64,000 nucleotides of DNA, from contig OZ244170.1 of NCBI GenBank assembly GCA_965216565.1, forward strand, positions 416,001 through 480,000. Direction: 5' to 3'. Shown here piece after piece: positions 35,430 through 53,513 of the stretch. Origin of the DNA: Bythopirellula sp. Lineage in GTDB: Bacteria > Planctomycetota > Planctomycetia > Pirellulales > Lacipirellulaceae. Below the pieces are notes generated by a model. It was not told the DNA's origin, ran no database searches, and saw only the letters and a list, made by a program, of their open reading frames with translations. The position numbers and the translations under genes were made by a program. Numbering within the stretch: the first letter of the stretch is position 1; every line of letters starts with the position of its first letter.

Positions 35430-35864
35430 CTAGAGCAGCAGCGAGGCAATCACTAGTCGGATCGCTATCCCACTAGAAAGGTCCGGACGGCTTTCGGTGC
35501 GGGATTCGAGATGATTGGGCGAAGCGAACGAACGGCAGACCTCGTCAATCGACGCCGCATCAAACTGTTCGCTGAGCGACCAACCAAAACTTAGTTGGCG
35601 GATCTTGTTGGGAGCATCTGAGAGCGCGTGGCACATGCACGATTCGTCGCAAGGGCACTGCGAGGGAGTGGGGCAACGCTCTTCATGGCCGTAGCCGGAA
35701 GACGCCGGTGACAAATCCTGGGAGGTTGAGCACTCGCAACGAAAGACACTCTCACATCGATCCGGTGTAACTGAGGCCTGGGCGACGTTCGCTGTACCCA
35801 TGCATAGCATGGGGCAGAACAGTACCCGCAGCACGATCAGAGAAACGACGATGTGGTGGAACAT
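35430..35864 (-). CDS. Cys-rich secreted small protein heading RND operon 1
   Basis: Signal-like N-terminus, many Cys, C-terminus AIRLVIASLLL. Confidence 0.7.
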   Translation of the reverse strand: MFHHIVVSLIVLRVLFCPMLCMGTANVAQASVTPDRCESVFRCECSTSQDLSPASSGYGHEERCPTPSQCPCDESCMCHALSDAPNKIRQLSFGWSLSEQFDAASIDEVCRSFASPNHLESRTESRPDLSSGIAIRLVIASLLL

Positions 35865-36180
35865 GGAAAATTACCGGTGAAAACTGCCTTTACCCATTCC
35901 ATTATACTATACCTATCTTGCCGAGGGGACAAGACTGGCCCCAGCAGCCGCTCCCTAGCTAAAAATCGGGAAGAATGCCTGCTTTCGCGGATCCGGAGAC
36001 GGTCGCCAAGGAGCGTTGCATGCAGTGATCTCCATTGAATGACCAGCTGGTAATGCCGTCTTGCAGCGTACCTACATTTGGCTTGGCGAATGCAATAGAC
36101 AGACCTTGGTCTTCATAGTTCAATGACGATTTTGTCGAGTTTTGGAACGAGTGCCACGCCGAATGGGAAGTAGGTTTGAG

Positions 36181-38358
36181 TTAGCGAAGCAATCGCAAGC
36201 CATTGAAGACGACCACGAGCGAAGCGCCCATGTCAGCGGCAATCGCAGCCCACAGCGAAGAATAGCCCCCAAAAGTTAGCAGCACGAACAATGCTTTTAC
36301 GCAGAGAGAAAAGGTGATGTTTTGCCGAATGATTGCCAAAGTACGACGCGAATGGTGAATCAACCAAGGGAGTTTGGCGAGGTCATCTGACATCAAAGCA
36401 ATATCAGCCGTTTCGATCGCAGCATCAGTACCTACAGCACCCATGGCAATTCCCAGTGAGGCACGGGCTAAGGCGGGAGCGTCATTGACACCATCGCCAA
36501 TCATACCAACGTGCTCGAATCTCTCGACAAGGTTTTCTACGGCGTCAACTTTGTTCTCGGGTAGTAATTCTGCATGTACCTCATCGATACCCGCTTCGGA
36601 AGCAATCTTGTCTGCTGTGCCTTGGTTGTCACCGGTCAGCATGACGATGCTTTCAACGCCAGCTTCATGGAGTTCCGACAAGGTTTGCCTGACCGTAGGT
36701 CGTAGTGCATCCGCAAGTGAAATGAAGCCACAAACATGATCGTCGTTACCTACAACTACTATGGAACGCCCTGCTTCTTGCAACGTTTGGAGTTGATGGT
36801 GAATATCAGGAGTCTCTTGGCCGCGCTGTTCCAGATATCGATGCGATCCGAGCCAAAACAGCTTACCACCAACGAGCCCTTGAGCTCCCTTGCCCTGGAT
36901 GATTTCAAAGTTGCCAGCGGGCGGGATGGAAAGGTATCGTTCATTTGCTTCGGCAACAATTGCACGTGCCAGTGGATGGTTGGAGTGCGATTCTAGTGCC
37001 GCCGCTCTCTCCAATAATTCAGTTTCGTTATGTCCGCTAAGCGGTCGGATATCAACGACTTTCGGATTACCATGTGTCAATGTACCAGTCTTGTCCATAG
37101 CAATCGCTCGCAGCTTTGCTGGTGCCTCCACGAAGACGCCACCTTTGATGAGCACGCCGTTCTTGGCTGCTGCCGCCAGTGCGGAAACGATTGAGACGGG
37201 CGTCGAAATCACCAAGGCACACGGGCATGCGATCACTAAGAGCACCAGTGACCGGTAGAGCCACACCGACCACTCGCCGGAAAACAGTAGAGGTGGAACC
37301 AGTAATACCAAAGCAGCTAAGGCCATGACGCAAGGCGTATAATACCGGGCGAATTTTTCGACCCATTGCTCAGACGGGGAGCGTTTTGACTGGGCTTCGC
37401 CAACCATTTTAATGATGCGGGCTAGCGTGGTGTCCTCGGCCTGCCTAGTGGAGTTGATTTCTAGCACGCCATCCCCGTTGATCGTTCCAGCAAATACTTC
37501 CGCATCTTTTTCCTTTTGAGCAGGTACGCTTTCTCCTGTGATGGGTGCCTGATTAACCGCACTAGAACCCTTCAGAACAAGGCCATCCAACGGAATCTTC
37601 TCGCCTGGACGAACAGTAAACGTTGTGCCCACATGCACTTCGGCCACTGCAACTTCTTTTTCGTTTCCGTGTTCGTCACGTACGCGAGCCATTTGTGGAG
37701 CCAGATCCATCAGGGCAGCAATCGCTCGACGCGCGCGGCCAACACTCCATGACTCAAGAAGTAGCGAGACTGAAAACAGGAACGCAACCGTAGCGGCTTC
37801 TAGCCATTCACCTATAGCAGCTGCACCAATTACTGCTACGGTCATCAATAGATTCATGTCTGGTCGTAAAGTCTTTGCTGCCCGCCATGCCTTGGGAAGC
37901 ACGTACCATACGCCCGACAAGATGCCGATGAGATAAGCCGCGACCGACACGACCGGTACGGAGTGTGCGATTCCCATTCCTTCAGAACCCAAGCCTGATT
38001 GCAGACTTCCACCAATCCAGACAGCAAGTACGAAACCCAGCAGGCCGAACAAACCGCTAGCTGATGTCAGGCATATGCGTCCGTAATTTTGCCAGAATCC
38101 GTGGTCGAGAGAATCGTTAGCACGATCACTCCACATTTCTGCATGCATACCAGTGCGTGAGACATAATCGATTACGTCTGTAGCAGAGACCGCAACACCT
38201 TCAGTATCAACACTCAGCTTGGCATTCAGTAGATCAAAGGATAGACGTTCAACTTCTCCAACGAGCGGTCCCAGCTTATCTCTAAGTAAAGATATCTCTT
38301 CGGCGCAATGCATGCCGTCAATTCGAAATTCAAGTCTGTTCGCCATCTTATAATCCAT
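36181..38358 (-). CDS. cadA: P1B-type heavy-metal ATPase (Zn/Cd/Pb, CadA/ZntA-like)
   Basis: GMHCAEE N-domain, TGES, CPC, DKTGT, HP, GDGVNDAP, K in TM7, D in TM8. Confidence 0.92.
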   Translation of the reverse strand: MDYKMANRLEFRIDGMHCAEEISLLRDKLGPLVGEVERLSFDLLNAKLSVDTEGVAVSATDVIDYVSRTGMHAEMWSDRANDSLDHGFWQNYGRICLTSASGLFGLLGFVLAVWIGGSLQSGLGSEGMGIAHSVPVVSVAAYLIGILSGVWYVLPKAWRAAKTLRPDMNLLMTVAVIGAAAIGEWLEAATVAFLFSVSLLLESWSVGRARRAIAALMDLAPQMARVRDEHGNEKEVAVAEVHVGTTFTVRPGEKIPLDGLVLKGSSAVNQAPITGESVPAQKEKDAEVFAGTINGDGVLEINSTRQAEDTTLARIIKMVGEAQSKRSPSEQWVEKFARYYTPCVMALAALVLLVPPLLFSGEWSVWLYRSLVLLVIACPCALVISTPVSIVSALAAAAKNGVLIKGGVFVEAPAKLRAIAMDKTGTLTHGNPKVVDIRPLSGHNETELLERAAALESHSNHPLARAIVAEANERYLSIPPAGNFEIIQGKGAQGLVGGKLFWLGSHRYLEQRGQETPDIHHQLQTLQEAGRSIVVVGNDDHVCGFISLADALRPTVRQTLSELHEAGVESIVMLTGDNQGTADKIASEAGIDEVHAELLPENKVDAVENLVERFEHVGMIGDGVNDAPALARASLGIAMGAVGTDAAIETADIALMSDDLAKLPWLIHHSRRTLAIIRQNITFSLCVKALFVLLTFGGYSSLWAAIAADMGASLVVVFNGLRLLR

Positions 38359-38533
38359 GAATGATTTGTGAGTGTTGTCAAAGTAACGACCGTAAGTGCA
38401 TATAGTAAAGTCGTAACCTAAAAAGCCATATTAAGAAGATGAGGTCGTCATTTCGATGTTGCCGTGAGTAAGTATCCATCACTTAACATACGTGGTGTAG
38501 ATGTTGATATATATCCTTTCTGCTATGAGTCTC

Positions 38534-39379
38534 TCATCGCAATACTGTCCATTTTCTGTAGAACAGTGATTTGTACCGTCCTACACAGATACTCACGCCG
38601 GCAAGGATTGCACTCATTAGTCGTGGCCAAGGCGACGGCCTTAGGATATCTATGAAAAGGCAATAACGTTTACCTTCCGACTCGTTGCACGATCTGTGTA
38701 GAAGAGTATCGTCCAAGATAAACAAGGGGTTGTCACGCCAATGATTTACGCAATCTCCTACCTCGATAAATGCCTTACCCTCTGAGGTCGGACCGAAATT
38801 ATACAGCACTCTGAGTGTTATTCGAAGCGAGCCAAAATGTTCTGAGGTCGACTGGTGTTTATTGAAGGCGGATACTCCGATAGTGCGGATATATTTGTGG
38901 GACTGATGGAATTCCGGTACATGGTCAAAGTTCGTATTGTTTGCCCCGTACCATTTGAAGAACTGCATGAGCCGCCCCGTCCCTTCCATAGCGACATTCA
39001 ATGTTTTGGGGAAATCGGTTTGGTCTACTACTCGAAGTATATCTGTAATCTCTTGCTGATGGCCATCTGGCAAATCTGCGAGTGTGTATATGCCTTTGTT
39101 CTTGTATGGCAGTGATAAAGCATCCATTGTCACATTGAAGGGTGATAACAGCCATGTCGTCACGCCATTTCCGGTGAAGTAACGCCAGAATAATTTGGCA
39201 TTGCGCTTCTTATTACGTAAGACGTCGATGGTGCCACACACGACAAAAAGTAGTGTTAAGCGAGGGATGAAGTAGACCACCACGCCAAGGAAGACGACCC
39301 GTTTCGTCGTTTTTAGGAATATCCTTGGCATCGTGGTGCGTCCCGTGCGAGATGTTTGTGGTGTAGAGTTATTTGCCAT
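38534..39379 (-). CDS. Aspartyl/asparaginyl beta-hydroxylase family (LpxO-like) protein
   Basis: TM N-terminus; EHFG..LR, DDTLLHRSCN..RYCLFIDILRP. Confidence 0.8.
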   Translation of the reverse strand: MANNSTPQTSRTGRTTMPRIFLKTTKRVVFLGVVVYFIPRLTLLFVVCGTIDVLRNKKRNAKLFWRYFTGNGVTTWLLSPFNVTMDALSLPYKNKGIYTLADLPDGHQQEITDILRVVDQTDFPKTLNVAMEGTGRLMQFFKWYGANNTNFDHVPEFHQSHKYIRTIGVSAFNKHQSTSEHFGSLRITLRVLYNFGPTSEGKAFIEVGDCVNHWRDNPLFILDDTLLHRSCNESEGKRYCLFIDILRPSPWPRLMSAILAGVSICVGRYKSLFYRKWTVLR

Positions 39380-39404
39380 ATGGCACTTGTTTCTCTTAAC
39401 ACTT

Positions 39405-40493
39405 CTATAGCACAACTCCGCCATCCCATACCAATGGGTCCGGTATTCCTTCGTCATCAATGAGCTGACGAATATCGATCTCGATGCTTCGGCTTAGGTC
39501 TGTAATCGGGACGTCGTTAGGGCCACCCTCAAACGGATTCTCTGAATGCTCGCCGACGATTTCCAACGCATAAAACACCCAAGAAACGATGGCGCTGAAA
39601 GGAATCGAAAACCAGACGAAATGTTTGCCAATAAAGACCCATAAAGCGTGAAGCCCAGCTCTCGCAGATTCATGCGCAGGATGATCTGAAATAATGTGAT
39701 CACCAATCTTCTCAAATTCCTCCATCACGCCATACGGTACCAGAAAGATAAACAACCATACGAACATGTAGTTCAACGTTGCAAACTGACGCGGATAAGG
39801 AAAGTTCTTGATGCGTTCCGATTTGCCCTGCAATGCATACAATTCCGATAGCGTTTTTTCGATCGCAACGTGCTCATAGGCTCCGACAAGATCGCGTTGT
39901 CGAAGCTCCTTGATCCGAGCGGACTGTATGCCCAACAGCTGAGATGCTTGATTCTCTTTCTCAAACACATCCACTAATTCGGTCTTCGTAATATATCGTG
40001 CAATCGCCTCCCGACATGGGACATCTGATTCCATTACATTGACGACAACACCGCGAAACCGTTTGTTTTCGGGAGATGCACGTTTGTTTTCCCACTGACG
40101 CACTGTCCTCAGCTGATACCTTAGTGCAGTCAACCAGGCGACATGTCGATGCACCATTTCACGGTGAATCGACTTGAGTTGGTCCGCGGGCAATTGGTCA
40201 TCTTGAACGAAGTCCCTCACCATTATCGTGAAAGATCGCGATGCATTAACGATTCCGCCCCAAATCTTCCGAGCCTCCCACAAGCGATCGTAAGAAGCAT
40301 TGTTCTTGAAGCCGACAATGAAAGCAACAGCCGTACCAACCACGCTGAGCGGAAGCCACGGCACGTGCAACCACGTCAGTCCAAGGATGTCGTACAGAAA
40401 TACCGGAACAAACGCCAGTAACAGGAAGCCAATAATATGCCCCCGCGTCCAGCGAAGCATCTTCTTGATTGGCACCGTTTTTCTAATGTACAT
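39405..40493 (-). CDS. Bestrophin-family ion channel
   Basis: GFKNNASYDRLWEARKIWG, ERIKNFPYP, ENPFEG..DVP. Confidence 0.92.
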   Translation of the reverse strand: MYIRKTVPIKKMLRWTRGHIIGFLLLAFVPVFLYDILGLTWLHVPWLPLSVVGTAVAFIVGFKNNASYDRLWEARKIWGGIVNASRSFTIMVRDFVQDDQLPADQLKSIHREMVHRHVAWLTALRYQLRTVRQWENKRASPENKRFRGVVVNVMESDVPCREAIARYITKTELVDVFEKENQASQLLGIQSARIKELRQRDLVGAYEHVAIEKTLSELYALQGKSERIKNFPYPRQFATLNYMFVWLFIFLVPYGVMEEFEKIGDHIISDHPAHESARAGLHALWVFIGKHFVWFSIPFSAIVSWVFYALEIVGEHSENPFEGGPNDVPITDLSRSIEIDIRQLIDDEGIPDPLVWDGGVVL

Positions 40494-40586
40494 AAGTGAA
40501 TCCGTGATTGCTTGAATGAACCCAACTCACTAGCCGGATAAAAAGTCGATTAGAGTGACGTGCGCTAGGTGAGATAAAGAGCATGT

Positions 40587-41270
40587 TTAGGCGGCGGAAA
40601 GCCTGTCAAGTTCATACGTAACACCTTCGACAAGCTGTATCCCCCGCTTCGCGAATGCGGCGGTGCTTGCGTCCTGGGTGGCAATTATGATCGTTTGTCC
40701 GTTCCTGTGAAAATCGCTGAGATAATTCATCACCTGCTGGCCCGTTCCCGAATCGAGGTTCCCCGTCGGTTCGTCCGCAAGGATTACCTGCGGGTCGTTT
40801 GCCAATGTGCGGGCCAGAGCGACCCGCTGTTGTTGGCCTGGGCTCAGTTCCGATGGCAGGTGGTCAGCTCGACCTGATAGCCCTACTCGTTCGAGAAGTT
40901 GGAGACCACGTTCTCGTTGCTCTTCCTCTGGCTTGCCAGAGAGCATTAGCGGAATCTGGACGTTCTCACAGGCCGACAGCCATGCCACAAGATTGACTGA
41001 CTGAAAGATGAATCCTATCTTATCGCTTCGCAATTTAGTTCGTTCGTGAATCGACATTCCGTACAACGAGCGGTCCTCAAGAAAGACGTTGCCCGATGAC
41101 GGAGCCAGCAACCCACCCAGGATCGACAGCAATGTCGTCTTGCCACTACCGCTGGGTCCGACTATAGCGATGTAGTCATTGTCGGATACTTCAAGATTGC
41201 AGTTTTCGAGTGCGGTCGCGACGTTGTGGCGACGCTTGTAGGTTTGAGTAATTGATTGAAGTTTGTACAT
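40587..41270 (-). CDS. ABC exporter ATP-binding protein (LolD/MacB-type), atypical motifs
   Basis: [27 protein letters not shown]-loop reads ATQD. Confidence 0.88.
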
Positions 41271-41314
41271 GGGGAGACACTTTCGCTATTGCGTTGTCTA
41301 GGATTTCAGCCGCG

Positions 41315-42562
41315 CTAGTGGCTGTGGCCTGCCTCATTAAGAAGCAGGCAAGGATCAATGACAGCTCCAAATGTAGCGGGCAGGAAGCTGGCGGCGATAG
41401 TAACTGTGATTGCATAGACGATGCCAACGACTAAAAGATGCGGCATTGGCTGAACAGAAACGCCTAGCAGTTGTTGTCCTACGACCGCGGCGACGGCGGT
41501 GCCCACAACGAACCCTCCTAGTCCTCCGGCCAAACCAAGCAGCGTTGCCTTGCCGAGGAACATTCGAGTCACGAAACTGCGGCTGGCACCAAGGACCTTC
41601 AGCGTGGCGATTTCCTTACGACGTTCGGTCACGTTGTAATACATACTGCGGGCGAGACTCATTCCACCGATAACCAGCAGAATCGAGAGAAATACCCTTA
41701 ACACGTCTGCCAGCCGACCGTTGACAGCGGCTAGTGCCTGCACTACTTGAGCGATGGTGATGATGCGATAGTCTGGAAGTTCGACGGAAAGATTTGTCAT
41801 CAAACTCTCAGCAGCGTCTTCGCAGCACGCCATGATCTCGATGGCGTTCACAACCGGCCCAGTACCGGACAGGTCCTGAACACTATGCAGGTGGGCGTAT
41901 AAGCGGCTGTCGTCGATTGTACCGGTAGATGGGAGCACGGAGAGAACAGCAAAGGTTTCGCCGAGTACCGTTAGATCATCACCGACATTGGCTCCCAATT
42001 GGGTAGCCAGATATTGCCCAAGAACCACTTCGCGCTCACCAAGTTCATTGAGGTTCCTACTCATGGCCAAGGATTTCGGATTACTGGTTCCTGCAACGGC
42101 TTCGGCCTTTGCCCCACAACAGCCATGGGCAGAGCCGACGGAGTTGATTGCTCCAAGGTCTAGGCGATCTGACTTCGCATGCAGCTCGGATCGAGGAAGA
42201 ATTCCTGTGACTAGGACGGGCACTGAATCGACATCCGATTCCACGCTGAGCTTTGGGGCAACGCTCTCTACCCCCGGCATTTTCGCCAGAGCTAGTCGCA
42301 AAGCATATTCCTCCGGCATTGTGTAGCTATGCACATCGGCGGCGTAATAGTCCTGCAGGGTGACTGCTGGTGGCAACACCAACACGTTCGCTCGGAGCGA
42401 TTCCATGTCCTCAGTGTTCTTCTTGTCGGAGGATATCGCAATATTTTGACTCGCCACCATGGCCGATACGCCTAGAGTGATCGCCAATAGACTGGTCAGC
42501 ATTGACGATGGCCGCTTCCAAAGTTCTTTCCAAATCATTGATCGTAGTTTCATAGTATCCAT
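41315..42562 (-). CDS. ABC exporter permease (MacB_PCD/FtsX) with CC motifs
   Basis: TM1, periplasmic domain with HGCCG and [17 protein letters not shown]. Confidence 0.88.
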
Positions 42563-42893
42563 CCCTTAGGGGATTGTTGATTTGAGGTTGGAGATTGCTA
42601 AATCGGTGCCGGGAGAGTGCGGACTTTTTTCTCAAACCTCAACTCTTGACTAGGGGCTACTCGCGATTAATCGGCTTGAGGGTGGTTGTCATCAGCCTGA
42701 TGGTGCTTGGAGTTATCGTCTTCGCAGGAATTTCCAGCCGTTTTTTAGTTCTATGCTTTACGAATGCTCATCTGTGGTCATCCATACTTTGAATCGACGG
42801 TAAAACAGGTGGCGTCAGCCCCGAAGCGACCGGGGCACATGTGCCCCGGTTACTCGGACCGTTTGTCCTCCTTCCCTTTCATGTCTATTGCTG

Positions 42894-43013
42894 TTACGGC
42901 CCGCAGCTGGGGCAACCTCCGGAGCCACTATGCTTGCCTGTTGTTCGACAGCCTATCGCTGAAAGACATACCAGGGCTGCTACGAGCAACGAGAGAATAG
43001 GTATCTTTGACAT
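42894..43013 (-). CDS. 39-aa lipoprotein ending GGCPSCGP
   Basis: ATG 43013 with AAGGAGG RBS; AIGC lipobox; hairpin downstream (~42826-42851). Confidence 0.65.
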   Translation of the reverse strand: MSKIPILSLLVAALVCLSAIGCRTTGKHSGSGGCPSCGP

Positions 43014-43109
43014 CTTCTTAATCCTCCTTGAAATGAGTCGCCTGAAATGAGCTGTTTCAGTACGGCTGAAACACTGCAGACGCAATCAACTGCAACCTTG
43101 TCATACGCT

Positions 43110-43760
43110 TTACGCTACTGACCGTTGCTGGCCTCCCTCGGGAATCCGATCCACAGGTTTTCCGGCCTGAGACAACCGACATTGCAAGAGGTCAAGCAAT
43201 CTGTGGAGCACTCCCCCGTAGACAATCACGTCTCTAGAAGTTGCCATACTTAGCCACTGGTCGATGGCACTCGGCGGTTCTGGTGAATAGATCCACACTG
43301 AGCGATTGGCATCGATAAGTCGCAACTTGGCTGAGGTAAGCCAGGCACTTTCGTCGTGTTGATTGTCACTTAGAAGTACTAACTCGGGACTGTGGCGAAG
43401 CATTTTGCCTGCCAACTCAGTCGCACTCTCAGCCCTGAAGACGGCAACACCGAGAAGTTCCAGTAAATGGGCAATGGGAGCGTACGCTTCGTCACGGAAC
43501 TCCACGATCACTACGGAACTAAATCTGTTGACTAACTGGGCCGATTGTTGACGCGGTGCTCTGTGTATTCGACTCGAACGTGTGTAACAAAGGCTTCGAA
43601 TATGTGCTTCGTATCCTCGTAAAGCGCAGGGATTTGCACGCATGACGGACTCCTGTTGAATTAATTGAATAGCGAGGGCCGATACCCGTTCGGGGTAATC
43701 GGTCGCTAAAGGACCGCTTTGGTCACCGCGCAAGACAAAGCAGCGGAGGCGGCACATCAA
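43110..43760 (-). CDS. Hypothetical protein with receiver-like C-terminal domain (start uncertain)
   Basis: LGVAVFRAESATE...PELVLLS...VWIYS pattern; lacks a clear phosphoacceptor. Confidence 0.5.
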   Translation of the reverse strand: MMCRLRCFVLRGDQSGPLATDYPERVSALAIQLIQQESVMRANPCALRGYEAHIRSLCYTRSSRIHRAPRQQSAQLVNRFSSVVIVEFRDEAYAPIAHLLELLGVAVFRAESATELAGKMLRHSPELVLLSDNQHDESAWLTSAKLRLIDANRSVWIYSPEPPSAIDQWLSMATSRDVIVYGGVLHRLLDLLQCRLSQAGKPVDRIPEGGQQRSVA

Positions 43761-43824
43761 AGGCGAGAAGGCTTGCGAACTTGAGCGCTTTCGGGCAACT
43801 CAGTCGAAACCAAGCAGCAGCCGC

Positions 43825-44277
43825 TCAGAGCAAGAAACGGCAGAAGAGGATACAGGGTTGCTGCACGCTGCTGGAGTTGTTTTGCGTGTCAGTGAATGTG
43901 AACTGACGTAACAATTCGAGATGGTTCGATGCGGTACTTGAGACGGAACAGACATCGACATGCAATAGTTCTGAGAGGGAACGTGTCTGCTGCTGCGAGA
44001 ACGGTAATCCGCTCAGCGGTAGCTTATGACATTTGCAGGTGCAGGGCTGCCCTTGTGAGTCTGTGCAATTACAAGAGCAGCAAATAGAATCGGCATATTT
44101 TGATGTTTTGGAGTGGGATTCACATTGGCAATGTGATGTGTCGCTAGATTGACAGGGACAATCTAGCGTACAGATACAGATTGAAGCGAACACGACATGG
44201 CAAGGCATGCAAAGTGCGAGGCATACAGCCACGATAGTACGGATTGAGGCACGCTTTTTAAACATGTTATCGTTCAC
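43825..44277 (-). CDS. Cys-rich secreted small protein heading the ABC/bestrophin cluster
   Basis: Signal-like N-terminus, CxC clusters, C-terminus QPCILFCRFLL. Confidence 0.7.
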   Translation of the reverse strand: MNDNMFKKRASIRTIVAVCLALCMPCHVVFASICICTLDCPCQSSDTSHCQCESHSKTSKYADSICCSCNCTDSQGQPCTCKCHKLPLSGLPFSQQQTRSLSELLHVDVCSVSSTASNHLELLRQFTFTDTQNNSSSVQQPCILFCRFLL

Positions 44278-44414
44278 AAATAATAAACCAGCTTCTACCT
44301 ATTAGCTCTTTTCGTTTATCGACAATTGCCGATCTATTCGTAACGTGTATTTACTAAATATCAACGGTTTCCGCTATTTCGTGATAGCATCACTTGCTTA
44401 GTTGCAACTCATCT

Positions 44415-44645
44415 TCAGCCGTACAGCAAAATCATAACTGCTGCGGCTACGGCAATTACAGTGCCTAAGATTACTTGGAACGTATTGGTCGGGTTTGGGT
44501 ACCTTACAAAGTCGATAATTTGCGGAAGGCATTGGAGTTCAACCAACAACGCAGCCACTGGTGCCAAACAGAAGCGCCAACGCTTCGGTAATCTTTTTTT
44601 ATCTGGTCGATCAAGTCTCTTTTTGTACTTCGTTCTTTTGCTCAT
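44415..44645 (-). CDS. Small two-TM membrane protein
   Basis: Basic N-terminus and two hydrophobic helices; GAGG RBS. Confidence 0.5.
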   Translation of the reverse strand: MSKRTKYKKRLDRPDKKRLPKRWRFCLAPVAALLVELQCLPQIIDFVRYPNPTNTFQVILGTVIAVAAAVMILLYG

Positions 44646-44856
44646 CGATTCCTCTCACCCCACTCGCGGAATGGCATCATCTGCAACATCGAAAACTCTG
44701 TCGGTGGTTGGTTCCAGTAGCCCAAAAATCCCGCCGGGGAAGCGAGTGCGGCCGCGGGGCACTGTGCGCACCACAGGCTCGCCTCCCCGACGCGGAGCGA
44801 TGGAATGAGTTGAATCCAGATTATTTTCTCACTGCAAGTGTATGCTTCACGAACAC

Positions 44857-46308
44857 CTACCTGTTGAGTACAACAAGATGCCTTCCTTTGTTTGATTGAA
44901 GTAGCACAAGGAGTGCCTTGTTCTTGGGACAATGGCTGATTGCATCCTTGTAGTCATCAAGGCTACTAATCGCATGGCTATTTACGCGTAACACGACCAT
45001 GCCAGCAGCCACGCCTTCCTTGTAGGCTGGGCTTCCGCTAGCCACGTCTGTGATAAGAACTCCACGCAGTCTCTTAGGGAAGTGAAGCTGCTTAGCCATT
45101 TCAACTGTTAGCGCATCAAGACCGAGACCGAGCATATCATCGACGTACTCAGAAACGTAACTAGCGTGTTCCGCGTAATCGAGCGATTGAGTTTCTTCCC
45201 TGCTTGGTCGCCTTCCCATCTCCACGTCAACAGTGACAGACGTTCCATTACGAAAATATGTGGTAGGGTAGCTCTTACCAGGGACAGGGTCGTCGAAGAG
45301 CTTTGAGGGCGGGAACGTGTCATCAATTGGTTGGCCGTCAAAATGAGTGATTACATCCCCGCGTCTAATTCCACCACTTGCCGCCGGGGACTTCTCTTCG
45401 ACGTCTTTGACATAGAGTCCCCCTTCTACAGGCAATTCCAGCAGTTGGGCAATCTGGAGAGTTAACTTTTGGGTTTCGCAACCCAAATATCCTCGCTGAG
45501 ATACCTTCGGATCGATCAGCTCGTCGACAACTTGTCGGGCAGTATTGATAGGAATGGCTAGACCAATTCCTTGAAATTCTCTTGCTGCACTAAAGCCCCC
45601 AGTGATCATTCCCACAACCTCTCCTCGAAGGTTGAGCAAGGCACCTCCTGAGCTGCCAGGATTCGTTGCCGCATCGTTTTGAACAAACGGATGAGGTATT
45701 CCAGGTATCCAACGCTCAGTAGCACTAACGATGCCCGCGCTGACTGAGTCTTTTAAGTCATACGGGTTTGCTAGTGATACGACCCAGTCGCCCACTTGCA
45801 GGCCATCAGAGTTGCCCATCGTCACTTCATCGAGGTCACTGGCACCTTCGATGCGAAGAACAGCTACGTCTGCAACAGGGTCTCCACGAATGTCAACTAC
45901 TTCGTATTTGCTGCCATCAGGTAATACGACAAACACCACCTCAGCGGACGCAACAACGTGATTACAAGTGAGAACCAGCCCCTCGCTATCGATAAGAATT
46001 CCTGAGCCTTGTTCGTCACGCAATTCTTCTGATGGAATCATTGCTCGATGGCCTCTCTGAGGTGCAATGCGTCTCCGCCACATCTCCGTCATTCGAGGGC
46101 CCCTCAAGGTATAGATTGTCACTAGCCCCTTAGATGCACTGTCAGCAGCAGTGCGAAACGCAGCCGATAATTCTGTTGGTGGGTGGGAGTTTTTAGTTTC
46201 TTCCTGCCGAATTTCTCCCTCAGCAGCTAAGGGTTGCTCGGCCAGAAGGCAAGCTGCAAATAAAACAGCTCCCACGAAAGGCGTCCACTGCAGAATTGTT
46301 TTATGCAC
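44857..46308 (-). CDS. HtrA/DegP serine protease with two PDZ domains
   Basis: GSG, TCNHVV, DVAVLRI, NPGSSGG, two PDZ domains. Confidence 0.93.
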   Translation of the reverse strand: MHKTILQWTPFVGAVLFAACLLAEQPLAAEGEIRQEETKNSHPPTELSAAFRTAADSASKGLVTIYTLRGPRMTEMWRRRIAPQRGHRAMIPSEELRDEQGSGILIDSEGLVLTCNHVVASAEVVFVVLPDGSKYEVVDIRGDPVADVAVLRIEGASDLDEVTMGNSDGLQVGDWVVSLANPYDLKDSVSAGIVSATERWIPGIPHPFVQNDAATNPGSSGGALLNLRGEVVGMITGGFSAAREFQGIGLAIPINTARQVVDELIDPKVSQRGYLGCETQKLTLQIAQLLELPVEGGLYVKDVEEKSPAASGGIRRGDVITHFDGQPIDDTFPPSKLFDDPVPGKSYPTTYFRNGTSVTVDVEMGRRPSREETQSLDYAEHASYVSEYVDDMLGLGLDALTVEMAKQLHFPKRLRGVLITDVASGSPAYKEGVAAGMVVLRVNSHAISSLDDYKDAISHCPKNKALLVLLQSNKGRHLVVLNR

Positions 46309-46444
46309 AGCTGTATTCCTTCCGTAAGCGTGCTTGCTCTATCGATGGCAACACCGAAGCCGGGCTGAAAACGTAGAGTCGGGAGCAGCACGTCCGTGGC
46401 TTGCCAAAAACGGCACTATAGGACTCGCTTGGATTCATCAATAC

Positions 46445-46690
46445 TCAATTCCTTGCAGTGACTACAACTTGTAATTTGCCACTTTTGAAGAGGACGTTTT
46501 GTTGGCTGAGAAGTCGCTTTATCTCAGCTAGTTCGCGAACTATATCCGATCTCTGAGCGGCCGGATTAACCTGCGGTGCAGGTTTGCGACGCAGCTCCGC
46601 CTGACTGTTTGATGCGAACGAAAAAGTAAACCATGCAATTGCATTGCAGAGTATCAACAACGCCCATCGCGAAGTCAGAAAACTTTTCAT
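46445..46690 (-). CDS. Small secreted protein
   Basis: Signal peptide, short coiled coil; AAGGAG RBS. Confidence 0.65.
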   Translation of the reverse strand: MKSFLTSRWALLILCNAIAWFTFSFASNSQAELRRKPAPQVNPAAQRSDIVRELAEIKRLLSQQNVLFKSGKLQVVVTARN

Positions 46691-46864
46691 TGTTCTCTCC
46701 TTAGACTGATTTCTCTTTGCTAGTCAGCGCATCCATCTCTCGCCTTCAGGGAACGCGAGCGTAGCTACTAATGGGAGTGTTAGAGCCACAGCTCGCGTTC
46801 CCCAAGCGGAACTACCAACGAAAGTCCGCTCTCACGTTCCCTTCCCGAGAGACGGTTCTATCGC

Positions 46865-47407
46865 TTAGTGGCCATGTCCTTCGTGTCCATGCCCTTCGTG
46901 GTCATGGTCGTGATGAATCTCTCCCCGGTATTGCTTACCGCCTATCGAAACCACTAACTGTGCTTCCACACCTTCGTGGTCAAGTTCTTCAGCTAGCTCT
47001 GCATCAGAGGAATTAAATCTCGACGCTTTGCCGGAAGGATCGCTCACTTGTGGATGCGCAGCCAAGCTGAATTGCTCGGCTTGCCCATCATGGGTCAAAT
47101 TGACCAGTAGTGTGGCAGCCTCAATTGGCACTGCATTTTTTGCGGAGGAGTCGAGCAGATAGAACGTGACAGTGCCGGCATCCTCGTCATGCACAAGTTC
47201 CGCGTGGTATTCCTCATTGCCTAGTTCAATGAGGCTTCCATGGTGAGGTCCTTCCGTTGGATGGTTATGAACATCGACTGTAGCCGGTGGAGGGGCACTA
47301 ACGGGTTTGCTCTCTTGCTCTCCTTGACTACAGCCTGAAACCAGCAGTAGACCGAGGCTAAGCCCCATTGCAATTTGCTTTCGAATCTCTATAAGTGACA
47401 ACTTCAT
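46865..47407 (-). CDS. His-rich lipoprotein
   Basis: VSGC lipobox; GPHHGSLIELG..YHAELVH; HHDHDHEGHGHEGHGH tail. Confidence 0.85.
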   Translation of the reverse strand: MKLSLIEIRKQIAMGLSLGLLLVSGCSQGEQESKPVSAPPPATVDVHNHPTEGPHHGSLIELGNEEYHAELVHDEDAGTVTFYLLDSSAKNAVPIEAATLLVNLTHDGQAEQFSLAAHPQVSDPSGKASRFNSSDAELAEELDHEGVEAQLVVSIGGKQYRGEIHHDHDHEGHGHEGHGH

Positions 47408-47454
47408 GGCATACTCCCTAGTGACATGGTGATAACGCCTTGTGGCGTTCGGTT

Positions 47455-48141
47455 CTAATGGTCGTGATCTGGGTCCTCATGACGAACATCGAAGCCTGCT
47501 GAGGCGAGCCATTTCTCCCACTTCTCGGCAGTCTTGTGGTCGACAAATTCGACTGCAGTCCATTTTGGACAGCGAAACTGTATATCTGTGTGTCCTTCAT
47601 GCGTCACGGGCTTTACTTCACAGCGTAGTGCTTGAGCGATGGTGATGAACTGAGATGCTGCAACTTTATCAGTAAAATGTTGAGTGGCCCAAGTTGGAGT
47701 TTTGTAGAGCACAACCTCGCCATGCTCTTCATCGTGGTCGTGACCATCCTTCTCACCTTCGTGGCCATGCTTCTCGTCGTGGGCGTGTTCTTCATGATCA
47801 GGGCTATGTCCGTGGAGCGTCTCAAAGCCGGCCGCCTTCAACCAATCCTCCCACTGGTGAGCCAGTTCATCAGATTCAATGCGAAGTGGCTTCCAATTTG
47901 CTGACCGATAAATGACGTCCACGTGAGTCTCATGACTATCGACTCGAACCTCTGCACCGAGTTGCTTCACGGCAGCGGCATGTTGCTGGGCTTTTGCGGC
48001 GTCTTCGAAGTGCCTCGTGTGCCATTCCTTTAGCCGATGCGCAAGGACAAAATCCTCCTTGTCGTGATTCGGTAGTTGTGCAATCACTATGTTCTCCATC
48101 AAGGCGAACACCACCGTCATTAACAATGTGTAATACTTCAT
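47455..48141 (-). CDS. Secreted His-rich protein with internal duplication
   Basis: ATG 48141 with GGAGG RBS; two repeats ending WEDWLKAAGFE / WEKWLASAGFD around a His linker. Confidence 0.8.
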   Translation of the reverse strand: MKYYTLLMTVVFALMENIVIAQLPNHDKEDFVLAHRLKEWHTRHFEDAAKAQQHAAAVKQLGAEVRVDSHETHVDVIYRSANWKPLRIESDELAHQWEDWLKAAGFETLHGHSPDHEEHAHDEKHGHEGEKDGHDHDEEHGEVVLYKTPTWATQHFTDKVAASQFITIAQALRCEVKPVTHEGHTDIQFRCPKWTAVEFVDHKTAEKWEKWLASAGFDVRHEDPDHDH

Positions 48142-48208
48142 TTCTCTTTCCTCCTTGGTAAAACATCCAATTCCGTAAAACGACTTGCCTGAATCAGACA
48201 TGCATGTG

Positions 48209-51200
48209 TCAGACGGTTTCTCCCTCCTCGACCAACTCAACATGCTGTTGTCCAGCTTTAATCACTCGGTGCGCTGCTCCCAGTCCGAATGTCCAGAACA
48301 GCGCCGGGCGGACGAAGAATTCAAGTACCGTGCTACTGATTAGTCCGCCCAGGATTACAGTAGCTATCGGATACAAGATTTCTTTCCCTGGTTCACCGGC
48401 CGACATTGCTAGCGGGACGAGCCCGATACCCGATGTCAACGCAGTCATGAGCACGGGGGCTAGGCGCTCTTTACCGGCTCGAATAATCATCTCTTTTGAC
48501 CAGGTTTCTCCTTCATGGCGAACGAGATGCAAGTAATGGTTGAGCAGCAAAATGCCATTACGTGAGGCAATACCGCCTAGCGAAATAAAACCAACCATCG
48601 CTGCCACTGTTAGTGTCTGGCCTGTAATCACAAGCGCTGTTACCGACCCAATGAACGCCATTGGCAATGCCACCATCACCTGCAACGCAAAATTCACCGA
48701 ACGGAACATCGTATAGAGCACCATCAGAACCCCGAACATGGATACGCTAAACAGCACACCGATAACTCGACTAGCATTCTTTTCACTTTCGAATTGCCCA
48801 CCGTATTCAACGAAATATCCTGCTGGAAGAGATTCAATTACCGAACGCTGGGCAGCTTGCATCTCGGTCACCACATCTACCAGGCCTCGACCGGAGACGT
48901 TGCACTGAATAACGATACGGCGTCGCACTAGCTCGCGGTTGATAGTGTTCGGTCCACTAGATTTATAGATCTTCGCAACCGATGACAGTGGTGCGGTTCC
49001 GCCTCCTGGCAGATCAATCGAAAGTCGCCCCAGGGCTTGCAAGTTCTCCCGGTATTTTTCATCCATTCGGACTAACAGATCAAAGGTACGCTGACCTAGT
49101 AGCACCTGACTAACGACTTCACCGTTCATGGCGGTCGAAATGTATTCATTCACAAAGACCGGGGTCAGGCCGTACTGCTCAAGTTTGTCGCGGTTCAGTT
49201 CTATGCGAAGCTGGGGAATCTCAACTTGCGGCTCTACGAGCAAGTCGGTGACGCCATCGATACCGCGCATCTTTGCCGCCATTTCCTGGGCGCTGCGACG
49301 AAGAATGCTCAAATCGTCGCCGTAAATCTTAATACCCACCTGGGCCTTCACACCGGAGATCATGTGCGAAATCAAGTGAGCTAGTGGCTGTTCAACTGTC
49401 GTAACGATGCCAGGAATGTCTTCCATCGCGTATCGAATATTGTCCAGTACTTCTTCGCGGCTGACATCAGATTCAGGGTCAAAGCTAATGAACAACTCGG
49501 TGATGTTAACGCCTTCGGCGTGCTCATCGAGTTCTGCCCGACCGGTCCGTCTTGCAAAGGCCTCGACTCCCTCAATTTGCATCAATCGCTCAATCACAGT
49601 TTGGGCGATAGTGTTCGACTTCTTCAGTGATGTACCCGGCGGCAAAACGACGTTGAGTTGAGCCACTCCCTCGTTAAACGGCGGCAAGAAATCACGCTCA
49701 AGGCTAGCAAGATAGGCGAAGGCTATCGCGACTCCACAGGCAGCTGCAAGCAACATAGCTTTTGGAATGCGAAGACTCAGCTGCATAGCGCCCCCAGCGA
49801 CCCACTTGAGAAAACGGAGCAGGGGTCCATCCTTTTCGCTTTCCATCAATTTCGCACGAGACAAAAGCCAATAGGACAAAACCGGCGTCAATGTCAGCGA
49901 GACAAGCAAAGAGGACAGAATCGAGACGATGTACGCGACCCCCAGTGGCGCGAACAGCCGTCCTTCCATTCCAGACAGAGCAAACAGTGGAATAAACACG
50001 ATGACTACGATCATCGTGCCAAAAACAATCGAGTTTCGAATCTCGACGCTGGCTTGGAACACCACCAGCAGCGGGTGTTTGGGAGATTTAGCGTGGCGAT
50101 TCTCACGGAGTCGACGGAAAATATTCTCAACATCGACAATCGCATCATCGACCAATTCTCCAATGGCAACTGCCAAGCCCCCAAGCGTCATCGTATTGAT
50201 TGATAGCCCAAAGGCTGTAAACACAAGAGCAGTGATGGCGATGGAGAGTGGAATCGCGGTTAGGGTAATAAAAGTTGTCCGGAAGTTCATCAGGAAGAGA
50301 AAGAGGATGATGACAACGAGAATACCTCCGTCACGAAGAGCTTCCACGACATTGTCTATTGCACGCTCAATGAACGCCTTTTGCGAGTACAGTTCAGGTT
50401 GAATGCGGATGTCGTCCGGCAATGATGGCTTCAGATCTTCCAGTGCCTGCATGATCTGATCGGTGACTTCACGCGTATCTGCTTTCGGCTGCTTGTTCAC
50501 GGTGAGAATAACAGCCGGGCCACCCGAAAACTCTCCATTTTCGTCCCGAACGTATGCCGAGCTGTCACCACGTTTGACTTGGGGGCCTTCAATGACGGTC
50601 GCAATCTGCGAAAGTAACACCGGGCGGCCTTCTCGCATCTTTACTACAACTCGTTTCAAGTCATTGAGAGTTTGCACGCGGCCTAGAGCACGTACAAGAA
50701 ACTCATTTGGCCCTTGTTCGTCCAAATAACCTCCGGTGGCATTTTCGTTGCTTTCTTGGCAAGCGCGCTTCACATCGTGCAGTGTTATGCCGTATTCGAG
50801 CAGCTTGTCAGGGTCGACGAGCACTTGAAATTGCATGCGACCACCGCCCATGGTGAACACTTGAGATACACCGGGGATGGTGAGCAGTCGCTGTCGAACC
50901 ACCCAATCGGCAAGCGTCCGCACTTCCAGCGGCGAGGTTTTTCCCTCTTCGCTCCACATGCCGATCATAATGATCTGTCCCATGATGGAGGAGATTGGTG
51001 CGAGCTGTGGTTTGACACCCTCCGGCATTCGGTCTTGGACCAACTGCAATCGCTCCATAACGATCTGCCGGTCGTTATAAATATCAGTCCCCCAATCAAA
51101 TTCGACGTAGATGACAGAGATGCCAACGCCTGCGGAACTGCGAACGGCTTCAACACCATTAGCACCATTGATCGCGGTTTCGAGCGGGAATGTGATCAAG

Positions 51201-51388
51201 GCTTCAACTTCTTCTGGCGCCATTCCTGGTGCCTCAGTCATTACCACCACGCGAGGTCGGTTTAAGTTTGGAAAGACGTCGATGTCCATCTGGATTGCTT
51301 TCCAGCCCCCAAATCCCATCAGGAAAAGGGAGAGGACAACGACAAGCAAACGCTGCCCCAGTGCAAATCGAATAATGGCGTTGAGCAC
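48209..51388 (-). CDS. Heavy-metal RND permease (CusA/CzcA family, AIG-DD-EN TM4 type)
   Basis: IDVFPNLNRP, AIGELVDDAIVDVEN, RLAPVLMT. Confidence 0.93.
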   Translation of the reverse strand: MLNAIIRFALGQRLLVVVLSLFLMGFGGWKAIQMDIDVFPNLNRPRVVVMTEAPGMAPEEVEALITFPLETAINGANGVEAVRSSAGVGISVIYVEFDWGTDIYNDRQIVMERLQLVQDRMPEGVKPQLAPISSIMGQIIMIGMWSEEGKTSPLEVRTLADWVVRQRLLTIPGVSQVFTMGGGRMQFQVLVDPDKLLEYGITLHDVKRACQESNENATGGYLDEQGPNEFLVRALGRVQTLNDLKRVVVKMREGRPVLLSQIATVIEGPQVKRGDSSAYVRDENGEFSGGPAVILTVNKQPKADTREVTDQIMQALEDLKPSLPDDIRIQPELYSQKAFIERAIDNVVEALRDGGILVVIILFLFLMNFRTTFITLTAIPLSIAITALVFTAFGLSINTMTLGGLAVAIGELVDDAIVDVENIFRRLRENRHAKSPKHPLLVVFQASVEIRNSIVFGTMIVVIVFIPLFALSGMEGRLFAPLGVAYIVSILSSLLVSLTLTPVLSYWLLSRAKLMESEKDGPLLRFLKWVAGGAMQLSLRIPKAMLLAAACGVAIAFAYLASLERDFLPPFNEGVAQLNVVLPPGTSLKKSNTIAQTVIERLMQIEGVEAFARRTGRAELDEHAEGVNITELFISFDPESDVSREEVLDNIRYAMEDIPGIVTTVEQPLAHLISHMISGVKAQVGIKIYGDDLSILRRSAQEMAAKMRGIDGVTDLLVEPQVEIPQLRIELNRDKLEQYGLTPVFVNEYISTAMNGEVVSQVLLGQRTFDLLVRMDEKYRENLQALGRLSIDLPGGGTAPLSSVAKIYKSSGPNTINRELVRRRIVIQCNVSGRGLVDVVTEMQAAQRSVIESLPAGYFVEYGGQFESEKNASRVIGVLFSVSMFGVLMVLYTMFRSVNFALQVMVALPMAFIGSVTALVITGQTLTVAAMVGFISLGGIASRNGILLLNHYLHLVRHEGETWSKEMIIRAGKERLAPVLMTALTSGIGLVPLAMSAGEPGKEILYPIATVILGGLISSTVLEFFVRPALFWTFGLGAAHRVIKAGQQHVELVEEGETV

Positions 51389-51399
51389 GGTGGAATCTC

Positions 51400-52887
51400 C
51401 TAGTGATTGTGTCCTGCATGCGGATCAACTCCGCCACCGGCTTTATTCTTAAGGGCGACTTGCATCTGATGGGCACCTGTCAGAGCGACGGTGTCTCCAG
51501 GAAACAAGGACCCATCATTAGCAACTACGACCCACAATTGGTCCCGATACTCGACATGCACTGCCCGTCGGTCGAAATGGTCGCCGTTTTGCAGAAACAC
51601 GAAGGTCTCTGCTCCTTCCTGGGCAACAGCGTCGACTGGCAAGACAATTCGATCTTTCCACTGCTCGACAGGAACACGAAGCTGCATCCGTTGTCCCGGC
51701 TTGAACCGCCACGTCACAAAACGGTGGCCATCCGGTGTGGTCGTGTCTTGAAGTACCTGATTTGGAATATCTACGTAGAACCGCTGTGCCCGAGAGTCGG
51801 TTTCTACTTCGTTGTCTACAAAGACTATCTTTAGGCCTTCAACAGTTTGTGTGCCGGGCCCATTGTTTTCGAGAACTGCTGTAATGTCCCAGCCAGGTTC
51901 GCCCGCAGCCTGCATGCGCGCCGCGAGGGCGATCTCTTCAGCATCTTGCTCGAAGGCTTGTCCCTCCACAAACAATTCATCGAGGTCTGCCAGGACAGCC
52001 AACGGGTAACCAACTTCCATTGATGATCCCACATGTACGTTTACTGCTTGCACGGTATACATATGGTCTGACTTAAGGCTGTTATCTGACGGGGCTGTTG
52101 AAGTGACTGGCCTTAGGGTCGTATCGTATTGATGCAATCTCTCGCCATGAACTGGTAGGGCCGGTGCTCGAACTTCGAGTTGGCGCAACAAGCGTCGACC
52201 GCTGGCGATATTGTCAATTTGCTTAGTTGACAACCCGTGCAGCAGCAATGCTTCACGGTGAGCGTTTAAGAATGCCTCTAGTTTTTGCTTGGAATACTTA
52301 CGCTCAAGGAGTCTCTTGCCAGCGATAACACCGCTAACATCGAGGCCGGACAGACGCTCGATTTCACGCTCTTCAACGTCGAGCTCGCCCAATGTTTTTA
52401 AGAACACAGTCTGGGCTTGAACGAGATCTTCGTGCGTTAGCTTGACGGTAAACATTAAGTCCCCCGGTTCGATGGCCTCTCCTTGCACGGTATGTACTGC
52501 CTCAATAACTCCGTTCATTGGGGCAGCAATTTGGACTTTTGTATGTCCTGGACGTTCGACAATACGAGCTGGGACATTGAGTGTGCGAATAAAAGCCCTC
52601 AGCTGGATCGGTTGCAGCTTCTCAGCAGTCAATCCGATATTGCGTTGAGCCTGCGGCGAGAGCTCCAGAGAGGTGGCTTCTGTATGACCCGCATGTGCGG
52701 CATGGTCGTGACCTTCGTGGCTATCCGGTTCACTAGCGACACCTTCCTCTTGCTTCCCAAGGTTTCCGCGCTGCACGAGCGGCAACCAATAGGCTCTCGT
52801 AGCGATAGTCGCAGTTACCAAGACGAGCACACCAATAAGGAGAATGGAGCCGCGTATAACCAGCGCCTTAGTTGAATTAGTTGCCAT
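51400..52887 (-). CDS. RND membrane fusion protein, His-rich
   Basis: TM anchor, HEGHDHAAHAGH, MFP motifs, DPHAGHNH C-terminus. Confidence 0.9.
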   Translation of the reverse strand: MATNSTKALVIRGSILLIGVLVLVTATIATRAYWLPLVQRGNLGKQEEGVASEPDSHEGHDHAAHAGHTEATSLELSPQAQRNIGLTAEKLQPIQLRAFIRTLNVPARIVERPGHTKVQIAAPMNGVIEAVHTVQGEAIEPGDLMFTVKLTHEDLVQAQTVFLKTLGELDVEEREIERLSGLDVSGVIAGKRLLERKYSKQKLEAFLNAHREALLLHGLSTKQIDNIASGRRLLRQLEVRAPALPVHGERLHQYDTTLRPVTSTAPSDNSLKSDHMYTVQAVNVHVGSSMEVGYPLAVLADLDELFVEGQAFEQDAEEIALAARMQAAGEPGWDITAVLENNGPGTQTVEGLKIVFVDNEVETDSRAQRFYVDIPNQVLQDTTTPDGHRFVTWRFKPGQRMQLRVPVEQWKDRIVLPVDAVAQEGAETFVFLQNGDHFDRRAVHVEYRDQLWVVVANDGSLFPGDTVALTGAHQMQVALKNKAGGGVDPHAGHNH

Positions 52888-53054
52888 GATGGAACACTCC
52901 CATTCGTGTCTAGCGCAGGTAAACGCCTTAAGACTCGAACGATGTAGGTGGTAACGCTGACGAAAAATAGTCAGGTGCAGGAAATAACCACAGTAAAGAC
53001 GGGACCTGGAAAGACCTCGCGTAATAACGCAAGGTTACTTGTCCCGCGAGCGGT

Positions 53055-53513
53055 TCAAATCAAGAAGACGCAATTAGCGAGGTGCGAGCGCACCGGTAGC
53101 GCATGTGGAGAATGAGCTACGGAGAAGGTGAGAGTCGATTCGCCGACAGGGAACAATGAAACGAATGTGGCGTCGAGAACAGGTGTCAGGGCGAACAGAA
53201 AGTCCAACTGAATCAGATCACTGCCGTCCCGCATTTCGGGTGCAGGCCACATGCACTGAGCATGGGTGCATGTATGTGGAGCGGGATGGGTCGGATCTGT
53301 GGGATGGTGAGCATGTTCCCCACATGAGTGGTTTGTTTCCAAGTGCAGTGGGACTTGCTCATTTTCTTCTTCATGACAATCTTGACCACCAACTTCATGG
53401 TGGTGATGACCGCAGACGGCATCAATAAGACTGTGTCCCTCATGCGCGCAACATCCCAGTGTCGCATGGACCAGGATTGCAGCAGCTGTGATTAGGTGGA
53501 CGTACGTACGCAT
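53055..53513 (-). CDS. His/Cys-rich secreted small protein heading RND operon 2
   Basis: Signal-like N-terminus, GCCAH, HHHH, CxHxxC, C-terminus RSHLANCVFLI. Confidence 0.75.
   Translation of the reverse strand: MRTYVHLITAAAILVHATLGCCAHEGHSLIDAVCGHHHHEVGGQDCHEEENEQVPLHLETNHSCGEHAHHPTDPTHPAPHTCTHAQCMWPAPEMRDGSDLIQLDFLFALTPVLDATFVSLFPVGESTLTFSVAHSPHALPVRSHLANCVFLI

Follow-up and report, generated by a model that had tools for sequence, protein, structure and literature searches.

Three candidate leader genes in a metal-resistance island

We analysed a 64,000-nucleotide stretch of the genome of Bythopirellula sp. (contig OZ244170.1, positions 416,001 to 480,000; hereafter the window), whose minus strand carries three short open reading frames (ORFs), A, B and C, that are candidate regulatory leader genes. 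The original prediction had described them as Cys/His-rich ORFs with a signal-like N-terminus and related hydrophobic C-termini, each heading a run of metal-export genes. All three are present on the minus strand with the C-termini it quoted; each has a hydrophobic N-terminus, and Cys and His residues number 11 and 5 in A, 19 and 6 in B, and 8 and 20 in C. Pfam and NCBIfam hold no family for any of them. Atlas matches were unnamed clusters only, with the Bacteroidota families DUF6769 and DUF8199 as low-count leads, and relatives, where searched by taxonomy or named, were planctomycetes.

Leader A (35430..35864, 144 amino acids) consists of a hydrophobic N-terminus, a Cys-rich middle, a 66-residue spacer and a tail of 13 conserved codons which, with the TAG stop codon, occupies 35430..35471. 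It is followed by a 165-nt intergenic region (35265..35429) that is predicted to be structured and contains the Shine-Dalgarno (SD) sequence AGGAG (35272-35276), by the gene of a CzcB-like periplasmic adaptor or membrane fusion protein (MFP; 33582..35264), the likely target of A, and by a CusA/CzcA heavy-metal pump of the resistance-nodulation-division (RND) type (30352..33570; TIGR00914 above cut-off). The arrangement of C (53055..53513, 152 amino acids, His-rich, 65-residue spacer, TGA stop codon) is similar: a 167-nt region (52888..53054; predicted structured, z -3.2, without a conserved helix between stop codon and SD), an MFP gene as likely target (51400..52887) and a second CusA/CzcA pump above the TIGR00914 cut-off (48209..51388). 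Leader B (43825..44277, 150 amino acids, 67-residue spacer, TGA stop codon) precedes, after a region without significant fold (43644..43824; z -0.7), a gene (43110..43643) that has no Pfam or NCBIfam family above cut-off and is receiver-like by eye only; an ABC permease/ATPase of the MacB/FtsX type follows. All of these features lie on the minus strand. Thus, A and C do head metal-export runs, and B does not. Conversely, the long gap that had been noted for two of the ORFs is common to all three, because 181 nt separate B from the SD-bearing ATG of the next gene.

Position and tail are conserved

Orthologous loci were collected via neighbours of the downstream genes to avoid selection on the tail. 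For the MFP gene after A, 63 loci were fetched, three of them without upstream DNA; by eye, a Cys-rich leader with a hydrophobic tail stands in 59 of the remaining 60, and the sole exception (L060) has a leader ending in a PP motif. The A tail follows the pattern G-x-x-x-R-L-x-x-A-S-L-L-L directly before the stop codon, which is TAG in 36 of 49 leaders. Among 53 unique automatic picks, one of which is in the wrong frame (L041), Gly occupies position -13 in 94%, Arg positions -12 and -9 in 87% and 75%, and Ser position -4 in 74%, followed by hydrophobic residues. The Gly at -13, present in 38 of 39 unique tails, is encoded by all four of its codons; such use of many synonymous codons for conserved tail residues implies that the constraint acts on the peptide. 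In an AlphaFold model of A based on 27 sequences (pLDDT 61, pTM 0.26), the middle is of low confidence and helices occupy the N-terminal part and residues 133-143; this is weak evidence that A lacks a compact domain. One locus (L024:3946-4833) has a tandem pair of leaders ahead of a single MFP gene.

The gene after B is preceded by a B-type leader at 21 of 25 loci, two of the 25 being from this genome; the four leaderless loci were excluded from later B counts. Most B tails read C-x-x-L-[CS]-R-F-x-L, and the tail in the window fits C-x-x-[LF]-C-R-F-x-L followed by TGA; the stop codon is TAA or TGA among orthologues. Among 301 genomes from the order, 19 carry the unannotated gene family that follows B-type leaders, and a metagenome scan with the gene after B returned one weak locus. 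The second copy of this gene in the present genome (positions 499999-500772 of genome contig C1) starts with a zinc-ribbon-like CxxC...CxxC segment.

A C-type leader was found at 19 of 20 MFP loci that we chose from matches to the downstream pump. Its tail, P-V-R-x-H-L-A-x-C-V-F-L-I, is followed by TGA in 18 of 20, and the motif H-x-x-x-G-C-C-A-H lies at the end of the hydrophobic segment. A C profile gave 271 matches at E<=0.001. In 155 proteins retrieved in this way, and hence selected by a profile that itself contains the tail, Pro at -13 reaches 69%, Arg at -11 95%, His at -9 93%, Leu at -8 92%, Val at -4 88% and Ile at -1 85%. Lack of conservation of tail and position had been named beforehand as one of the outcomes that would refute the original prediction, and both proved strongly conserved.

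Two other readings of the C-termini were rejected. A conserved stop codon is not a shared feature, as it differs by family and TAG is the commonest stop codon in the genome. CaaX-type or tail-anchor functions were dismissed since the Cys at -5 is often replaced and the tail is short and charged.

A spacer of fixed length

The last Cys pair and the C-terminus are 61-69 residues apart in 49 of 49 A leaders, 63-74 in 21 of 21 B leaders and 58-66 in 17 of 20 C leaders (medians 63, 68 and 63). All ten leaders of this class that the genome contains (see below) have a distance of 60-69 residues, as do two of 47 further Cys-rich hydrophobic ORFs, a set that probably includes many spurious ones. Spacer length in 27 A proteins varies half as much as the length of the N-terminal part (standard deviation 1.7 vs 3.5). 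For LepB, folding of the periplasmic domain occurs at about 70 residues from the peptidyl transferase centre (PTC; 10.1101/2021.02.06.430026), and when PhoA folds in a DsbA-dependent, disulfide-driven manner, force reaches the PTC (PMC7513700). The spacer has the length at which a periplasmic domain can fold and pull on a chain still held by the ribosome, which would place the Cys/His part in the periplasm with the tail still inside the exit tunnel.

One class, three families

When all 24,213 ORF ends of the genome were ranked with tail profiles, A, B, C and four other leaders took the top seven places with scores of 20.9-39.3 vs 9.0 for the next ORF end, using profiles that contained the window sequences; when each was removed from its own family profile, A and C still ranked 1st and B 5th. 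The tails also cross-react, counting scores that exceed the 99th percentile for ORF ends in this genome: the A profile picks up 11 of 19 B and 14 of 19 C tails, the C profile 17 of 33 A and 6 of 19 B tails, and the B profile 9 of 33 A and 11 of 19 C tails. A and B align weakly (E 4e-5), and no homology was detectable between A and C (hhalign probability 0.08). The predicted relatedness of the tails therefore holds as a common pattern above chance and not as a single motif; the latter was rejected as too strong given the hhalign result and the rank of the B tail under the C profile (3710th).

A tblastn search of the genome revealed no paralogue of A, B or C. The B profile detected four further B-type leaders, and neither A nor C. 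In total the genome has ten leaders of this class, the seven beyond the window ORFs lying on contig C1 at 483544-484053, 500914-501378, 521131-521787, 522579-522977, 1374237-1374761, 1389175-1389654 and 2832929-2833414. The genes that these seven precede encode CusBA-type pumps, small exported proteins or ABC exporters. Two of the seven have a CU-rich anti-SD sequence directly after the stop codon, and C1:521131-522977 comprises tandem leaders with a small Cys-rich gene between them. A leader stands ahead of four of the five RND pumps that pass TIGR00914, vs none of the seven other RND pumps in the genome. The leaderless fifth heavy-metal RND operon (C1:492650-494153) is preceded by what looks by eye like a pair of ECF sigma factor and zinc anti-sigma factor genes.

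In a phylum-wide survey, we examined 40 of 65 other CzcA matches from a draw of 150 genomes, filtered and then sorted by eye. A hydrophobic-tail leader occupies the position before the pump operon at 17 loci and an HPP leader at eight (L146, L148, L154, L157, L160, L161, L170 and L173), the latter being CutF-like and mostly without Pfam match, with a sub-cut-off DUF2946 match (E 0.041) in one of four. None was seen at 15, of which three lack upstream DNA and one is only the gap between tandem pumps. The spacer measures 63-73 residues in 12 of the 17 tail-type leaders and 44-49 in all eight HPP leaders, near the value of 45 given for CruR (PMC9426467). Tail-type and HPP/CutF-like leaders are thus interchangeable in the slot before CzcA pumps.

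RNA at the stop codon

Directly behind the stop codon of family A leaders lies a 7-base element complementary to the bases that lead into the SD of the MFP gene. Complementarity to this SD peaks at the stop codon (median -13.5 to -14.6 kcal/mol vs -5.7 to -10.9 in every other window). After removal of five loci with doubtful starts, 39 unique ones were left, and 17 of these have their best window at 0 or +6 from the stop codon. Blocking a ribosome footprint at the stop codon lowers the predicted cost of opening the ribosome-binding site by at least 1.4 kcal in 15 of the 39 loci, with controls giving two and three. In A of the window the element is altered on both sides; instead, codons at 35434-35455 are the predicted pairing partner of the SD and the start of the MFP gene, the gap with its flanks folds at z -3.3, and the opening cost falls from 8.8 to 6.5. 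A footprint effect also appears in 7 of 14 distant planctomycete leaders (control two), whose pairing sequences are unrelated. We predict that RNA at the stop codon masks the next ribosome-binding site in family A and the distant leaders, and not in family C. The intergenic regions are pyrimidine-rich (median 0.59; 90th percentile of the background 0.58).

ScsA carries a similar tail

A gene ahead of an scsB-like dsbD gene on a Cronobacter plasmid ends in R-I-H-L-K-N-C-V-F-R-E. Used as a query it retrieved 39 plasmid records, one of them annotated as ScsA ahead of ScsB in Klebsiella aerogenes. Six ScsA-type genes (L086:1180-1685, L118:1195-1604 and L119-L122) were scored with the planctomycete C profile against the 24,213 ORF ends; four rank 6th, the others 43rd and 168th. 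In all six the last codons and the stop codon fold onto the scsB SD, and five of the 20 consensus pairs of this hairpin change on both sides. The ScsA-type gene in the Pantoea agglomerans record (L120) is unannotated; Phaeobacter-type and Pantoea deleyi dsbD loci have no annotated ScsA-like gene ahead.

ScsA, encoded in enterobacterial scsABCD operons, resembles the window leaders in being the first gene and in its hydrophobic N-terminus; its tail R-x-H-L-x-x-C-V-F has the same register as that of C, and its last codons pair with the next SD. Unlike the window leaders, it ends in Arg-Glu, has few Cys residues and a second hydrophobic segment, and is followed by a gap of 46-50 nt. The sequence comparison with C covered the tails of these six ScsA-type genes, and the window ORFs, which precede MFP or unassigned genes and not scsB, share with ScsA only the tail pattern. 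ScsA has been described as of unknown function or as a possible peroxidase, and not as a leader (PMC10907172, PMC3672137); the 2024 review leaves its function open (PMC10907172). Deletion of the whole scsA gene conferred peroxide but not copper sensitivity, and deletion of scsABCD did not cause peroxide sensitivity, which the authors ascribed to an imbalance (PMC3672137). Loss of a masking RNA arm would give the same phenotype.

Genomic surroundings

The original prediction overstated the lack of a dedicated transcription factor: two plus-strand genes pass the cut-off of the MntR family NF008273, one (28773..29207) convergent with the end of the A run and the other (55081..55527) divergent and one gene upstream of C. 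These two similar genes bracket the island, and two perfect palindromes lie in the intergenic region before the second. No perfect palindrome with arms of at least six bases was found ahead of A or C, nor did a promoter scan give a minus-strand site there or a terminator scan a hit in the gap after either leader. Promoter-like -35/-10 words were seen by eye only ahead of the orthologues: a recurring TAGAC...N17...TAAT 30-60 nt before the start for C (L064-L078), and TTG...TA-a-aT for A, unlike that before C.

A Zn/Cd-type P1B ATPase gene of the ZntA type (36181..38358) precedes A on the minus strand, with 316 nt between its end and the leader, and an HtrA-type PDZ protease gene occupies 44857-46308. 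Between the gene after B and the ABC permease gene lies a 39-codon ORF (42894-43013, minus strand) that has a strong SD and encodes a lipoprotein-like signal and a CxxC near its C-terminus. The second pump is followed by genes for two exported, His-rich proteins that match no family (46865-48243, minus strand), and a Cys-rich CopZ-N/MerT/HMA fusion protein at 56276-57514 (minus strand).

A model for cis-acting leaders and its alternatives

Taking these data together, we give a probability of roughly 0.6 to the view that A, B and C are conserved leaders with a proline-free tail of fixed length which act in cis as exported sensors of metals or thiols, halt the ribosome on the stop codon or immediately ahead of it and thereby switch on the next gene. 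The hydrophobic N-terminus would thread the nascent chain through the Sec channel, and the last Cys pair lies some 60-70 residues from the C-terminus. By analogy with CutF, disulfide formation or folding would pull on the chain and release the pause when metal is absent, and bound metal would block the pulling and prolong it. The paused ribosome is predicted to cover the SD-masking RNA arm so that the pump is translated, a step for which family A, the distant planctomycete leaders and ScsA provide support; in family C the output may instead be an RNA rearrangement or transcription termination. Since the motif ends exactly at the stop codon, arrest at termination is likely, and there are precedents for it (PMC10987492; the LudP preprint, 10.64898/2026.10.26.761930).

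Several results weigh against this model. Most loci are related, and the counts are thus not independent. By pN/pS, the A tail (0.40) is under no stronger constraint than the A spacer (0.38). No footprint effect was seen in 24 of the 39 A loci, covariation of the A helix, which is 90.6% paired, did not exceed that of shuffled alignments (one compensatory pair), and RNAalifold favoured an inner helix over the one joining stop codon and SD. The footprint effect is weak in family B (9 of 19 vs 5 of 19 in the control), and in B of the window the control drop exceeds the footprint drop. Family C has neither a peak of SD complementarity nor a consensus RNA structure and shows the effect at 2 of 15 loci, three having been dropped for doubtful starts and two left uncomputed. 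Finally, the target of B is not a known metal gene, and the nearby MntR regulators could supply transcriptional control. The metal-sensing system originally proposed is supported in part, by the conserved tail and position, the fixed spacer, the slot shared with CutF-like leaders and the predicted SD-masking helix of A and the distant leaders; the failure to find an RNA switch in family C, the target of B and the MntR genes speak on the other side.

The same tail occurs upstream of the disulfide reductase ScsB, of the unassigned gene after B and of ABC exporters, which, like the force exerted on the PTC by DsbA-dependent folding (PMC7513700), would suit cis-acting leaders without metal specificity that monitor secretion or periplasmic disulfides, or whose termination opens the helix and so couples translation constitutively. 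We regard this as unlikely: the leaders mark heavy-metal RND pumps and spare the others, the existence of His-rich and Cys-rich variants suggests different ligands, and plain coupling needs neither a conserved peptide tail nor a fixed spacer. Less probable is a function in trans, as metal-binding proteins that are either free in the periplasm or lipid-anchored, such as metallothionein-like buffers or chaperones, with the tail serving as a protease or PDZ signal. The conserved Cys positions, a possible lipobox-like L-G-C in family C, the HtrA-type PDZ protease gene nearby and the fact that non-polar C-termini are degradation signals (PMC9426467) would agree with it. However, the conserved part spans the last 11-13 residues, Arg, His and Gly among them, ScsA retains the pattern though it ends in Arg-Glu, and a degron accounts neither for the fixed spacer and the long gap nor for the place as first gene and the SD-masking helix.

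Least probable, and most plausible for family C with its lack of an anti-SD helix, is that the pause acts as in CruR and governs not translation initiation but Rho-dependent transcription termination in the long gap. At 165-181 nt, the gaps are similar in length to the cruR-bfrG region of 162 nt (PMC9426467) and are pyrimidine-rich, yet their C/G ratio is only 1.13 vs 1.05 in the background, family A and ScsA do have anti-SD helices, and the CruR logic, which switches genes off with metal, suits an importer and not an exporter.

As a tentative extension of the model of exported, pausing sensors, to which we give slightly less than even odds, these leaders may form a second widespread class of trans-membrane sensing leaders beside the RAPP/HPP type, with helical, proline-free termination arrest, a 60-70-residue ruler and a report on periplasmic metals or thiols. 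The class would be used about ten times in this genome, be interchangeable with CutF-like leaders before CzcA pumps and include ScsA as a translation regulator of scsBCD instead of an enzyme. Should the tail indeed stall ribosomes at termination, it would represent a new arrest chemistry and a common periplasm-based control of heavy-metal pumps without a transcription factor; for ScsA, the shared tail and hairpin fit the different outcomes of scsA and scsABCD deletion (PMC3672137).

Comparison with known leader peptides

The known metal-responsive leader peptides are the proline-motif cases CruR and CutF. The published surveys consulted were filtered on PP or RAPP and would miss the class described here; a literature search, with most subscription papers outside its scope, found no description of this tail nor of ScsA as a leader. 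Stop-proximal arrest peptides are represented by uDF_DGMK-stop, uA_NSP-stop and LudP, which differ in motif, lie upstream of sec/yidC genes and, in the portions of the sources available, have no metal-binding part reported (PMC10987492, 10.64898/2026.10.26.761930). CzcI of Cupriavidus metallidurans, suggested to be a metal-sensing regulator and noted as a PP-less relative (PMC9973294), lies upstream of czcCBA and has no C-terminal proline motif; it is set beside our leaders by description only, and they may overlap with the PP-less cluster 20 (CzcI) of that study.

CruR of Bordetella pertussis (Bp2923; DUF2946/PF11162), whose arrest was demonstrated in vitro (PMC12992588), is similar in its length of about 145 amino acids, its position as first gene, the long intergenic region and a conserved spacing between metal motif and C-terminal motif (PMC9426467). 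Unlike CruR, which acts via Rho, our leaders have no RAPP, possess a longer spacer and precede exporters and not an importer. As the original prediction had anticipated, the C-terminal motif is of a non-RAPP kind: RAPP is absent from all position-picked leaders (0 of 49 A, 0 of 21 B, 0 of 20 C) and from the 155 C-profile matches. PF11162 matches neither A, B nor C at E<=0.1, nor nine C-family proteins at E<=1, and the CxxC found about 45 residues before the CruR arrest motif (PMC9426467) contrasts with median distances of 63, 68 and 63 residues to the C-terminus here.

The closest parallel is CutF of Rhodobacter capsulatus and its relatives, small exported Cys/His proteins encoded first in an operon, often before CusA, CzcA or CusB, for which a stem-loop masking the next SD and a metal-prolonged stall were proposed (PMC9973294; 10.1101/2025.02.05.636593). 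The CutF model comprises export, pausing, release from the periplasmic side, a pause lengthened by metal and SD unmasking (10.1101/2025.02.05.636593). The CutF-like rule asks for about 150 residues or less and an N-terminal signal peptide; the window leaders have 144-152 amino acids and a hydrophobic N-terminal helix. A and C combine the Cys/His motif with a place upstream of metal genes, and B precedes the unassigned gene; the SD-masking stem-loop is predicted in A and the distant leaders, weak in B and not found in C, with covariation not significant. The PP in the last 15 residues that defines CutF-like proteins is absent from the window ORFs and present in few members of their families (0 of 49 A, 0 of 21 B, 2 of 20 C). 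Instead, the motif extends to the stop codon, and a spacer of 60-70 residues contrasts with one of 44-49 in HPP leaders of the same slot. As we read them, the leaders described here would operate like CutF and CruR, yet they fall outside both by PF11162, by the RAPP or PP motif and by the length of the ruler.

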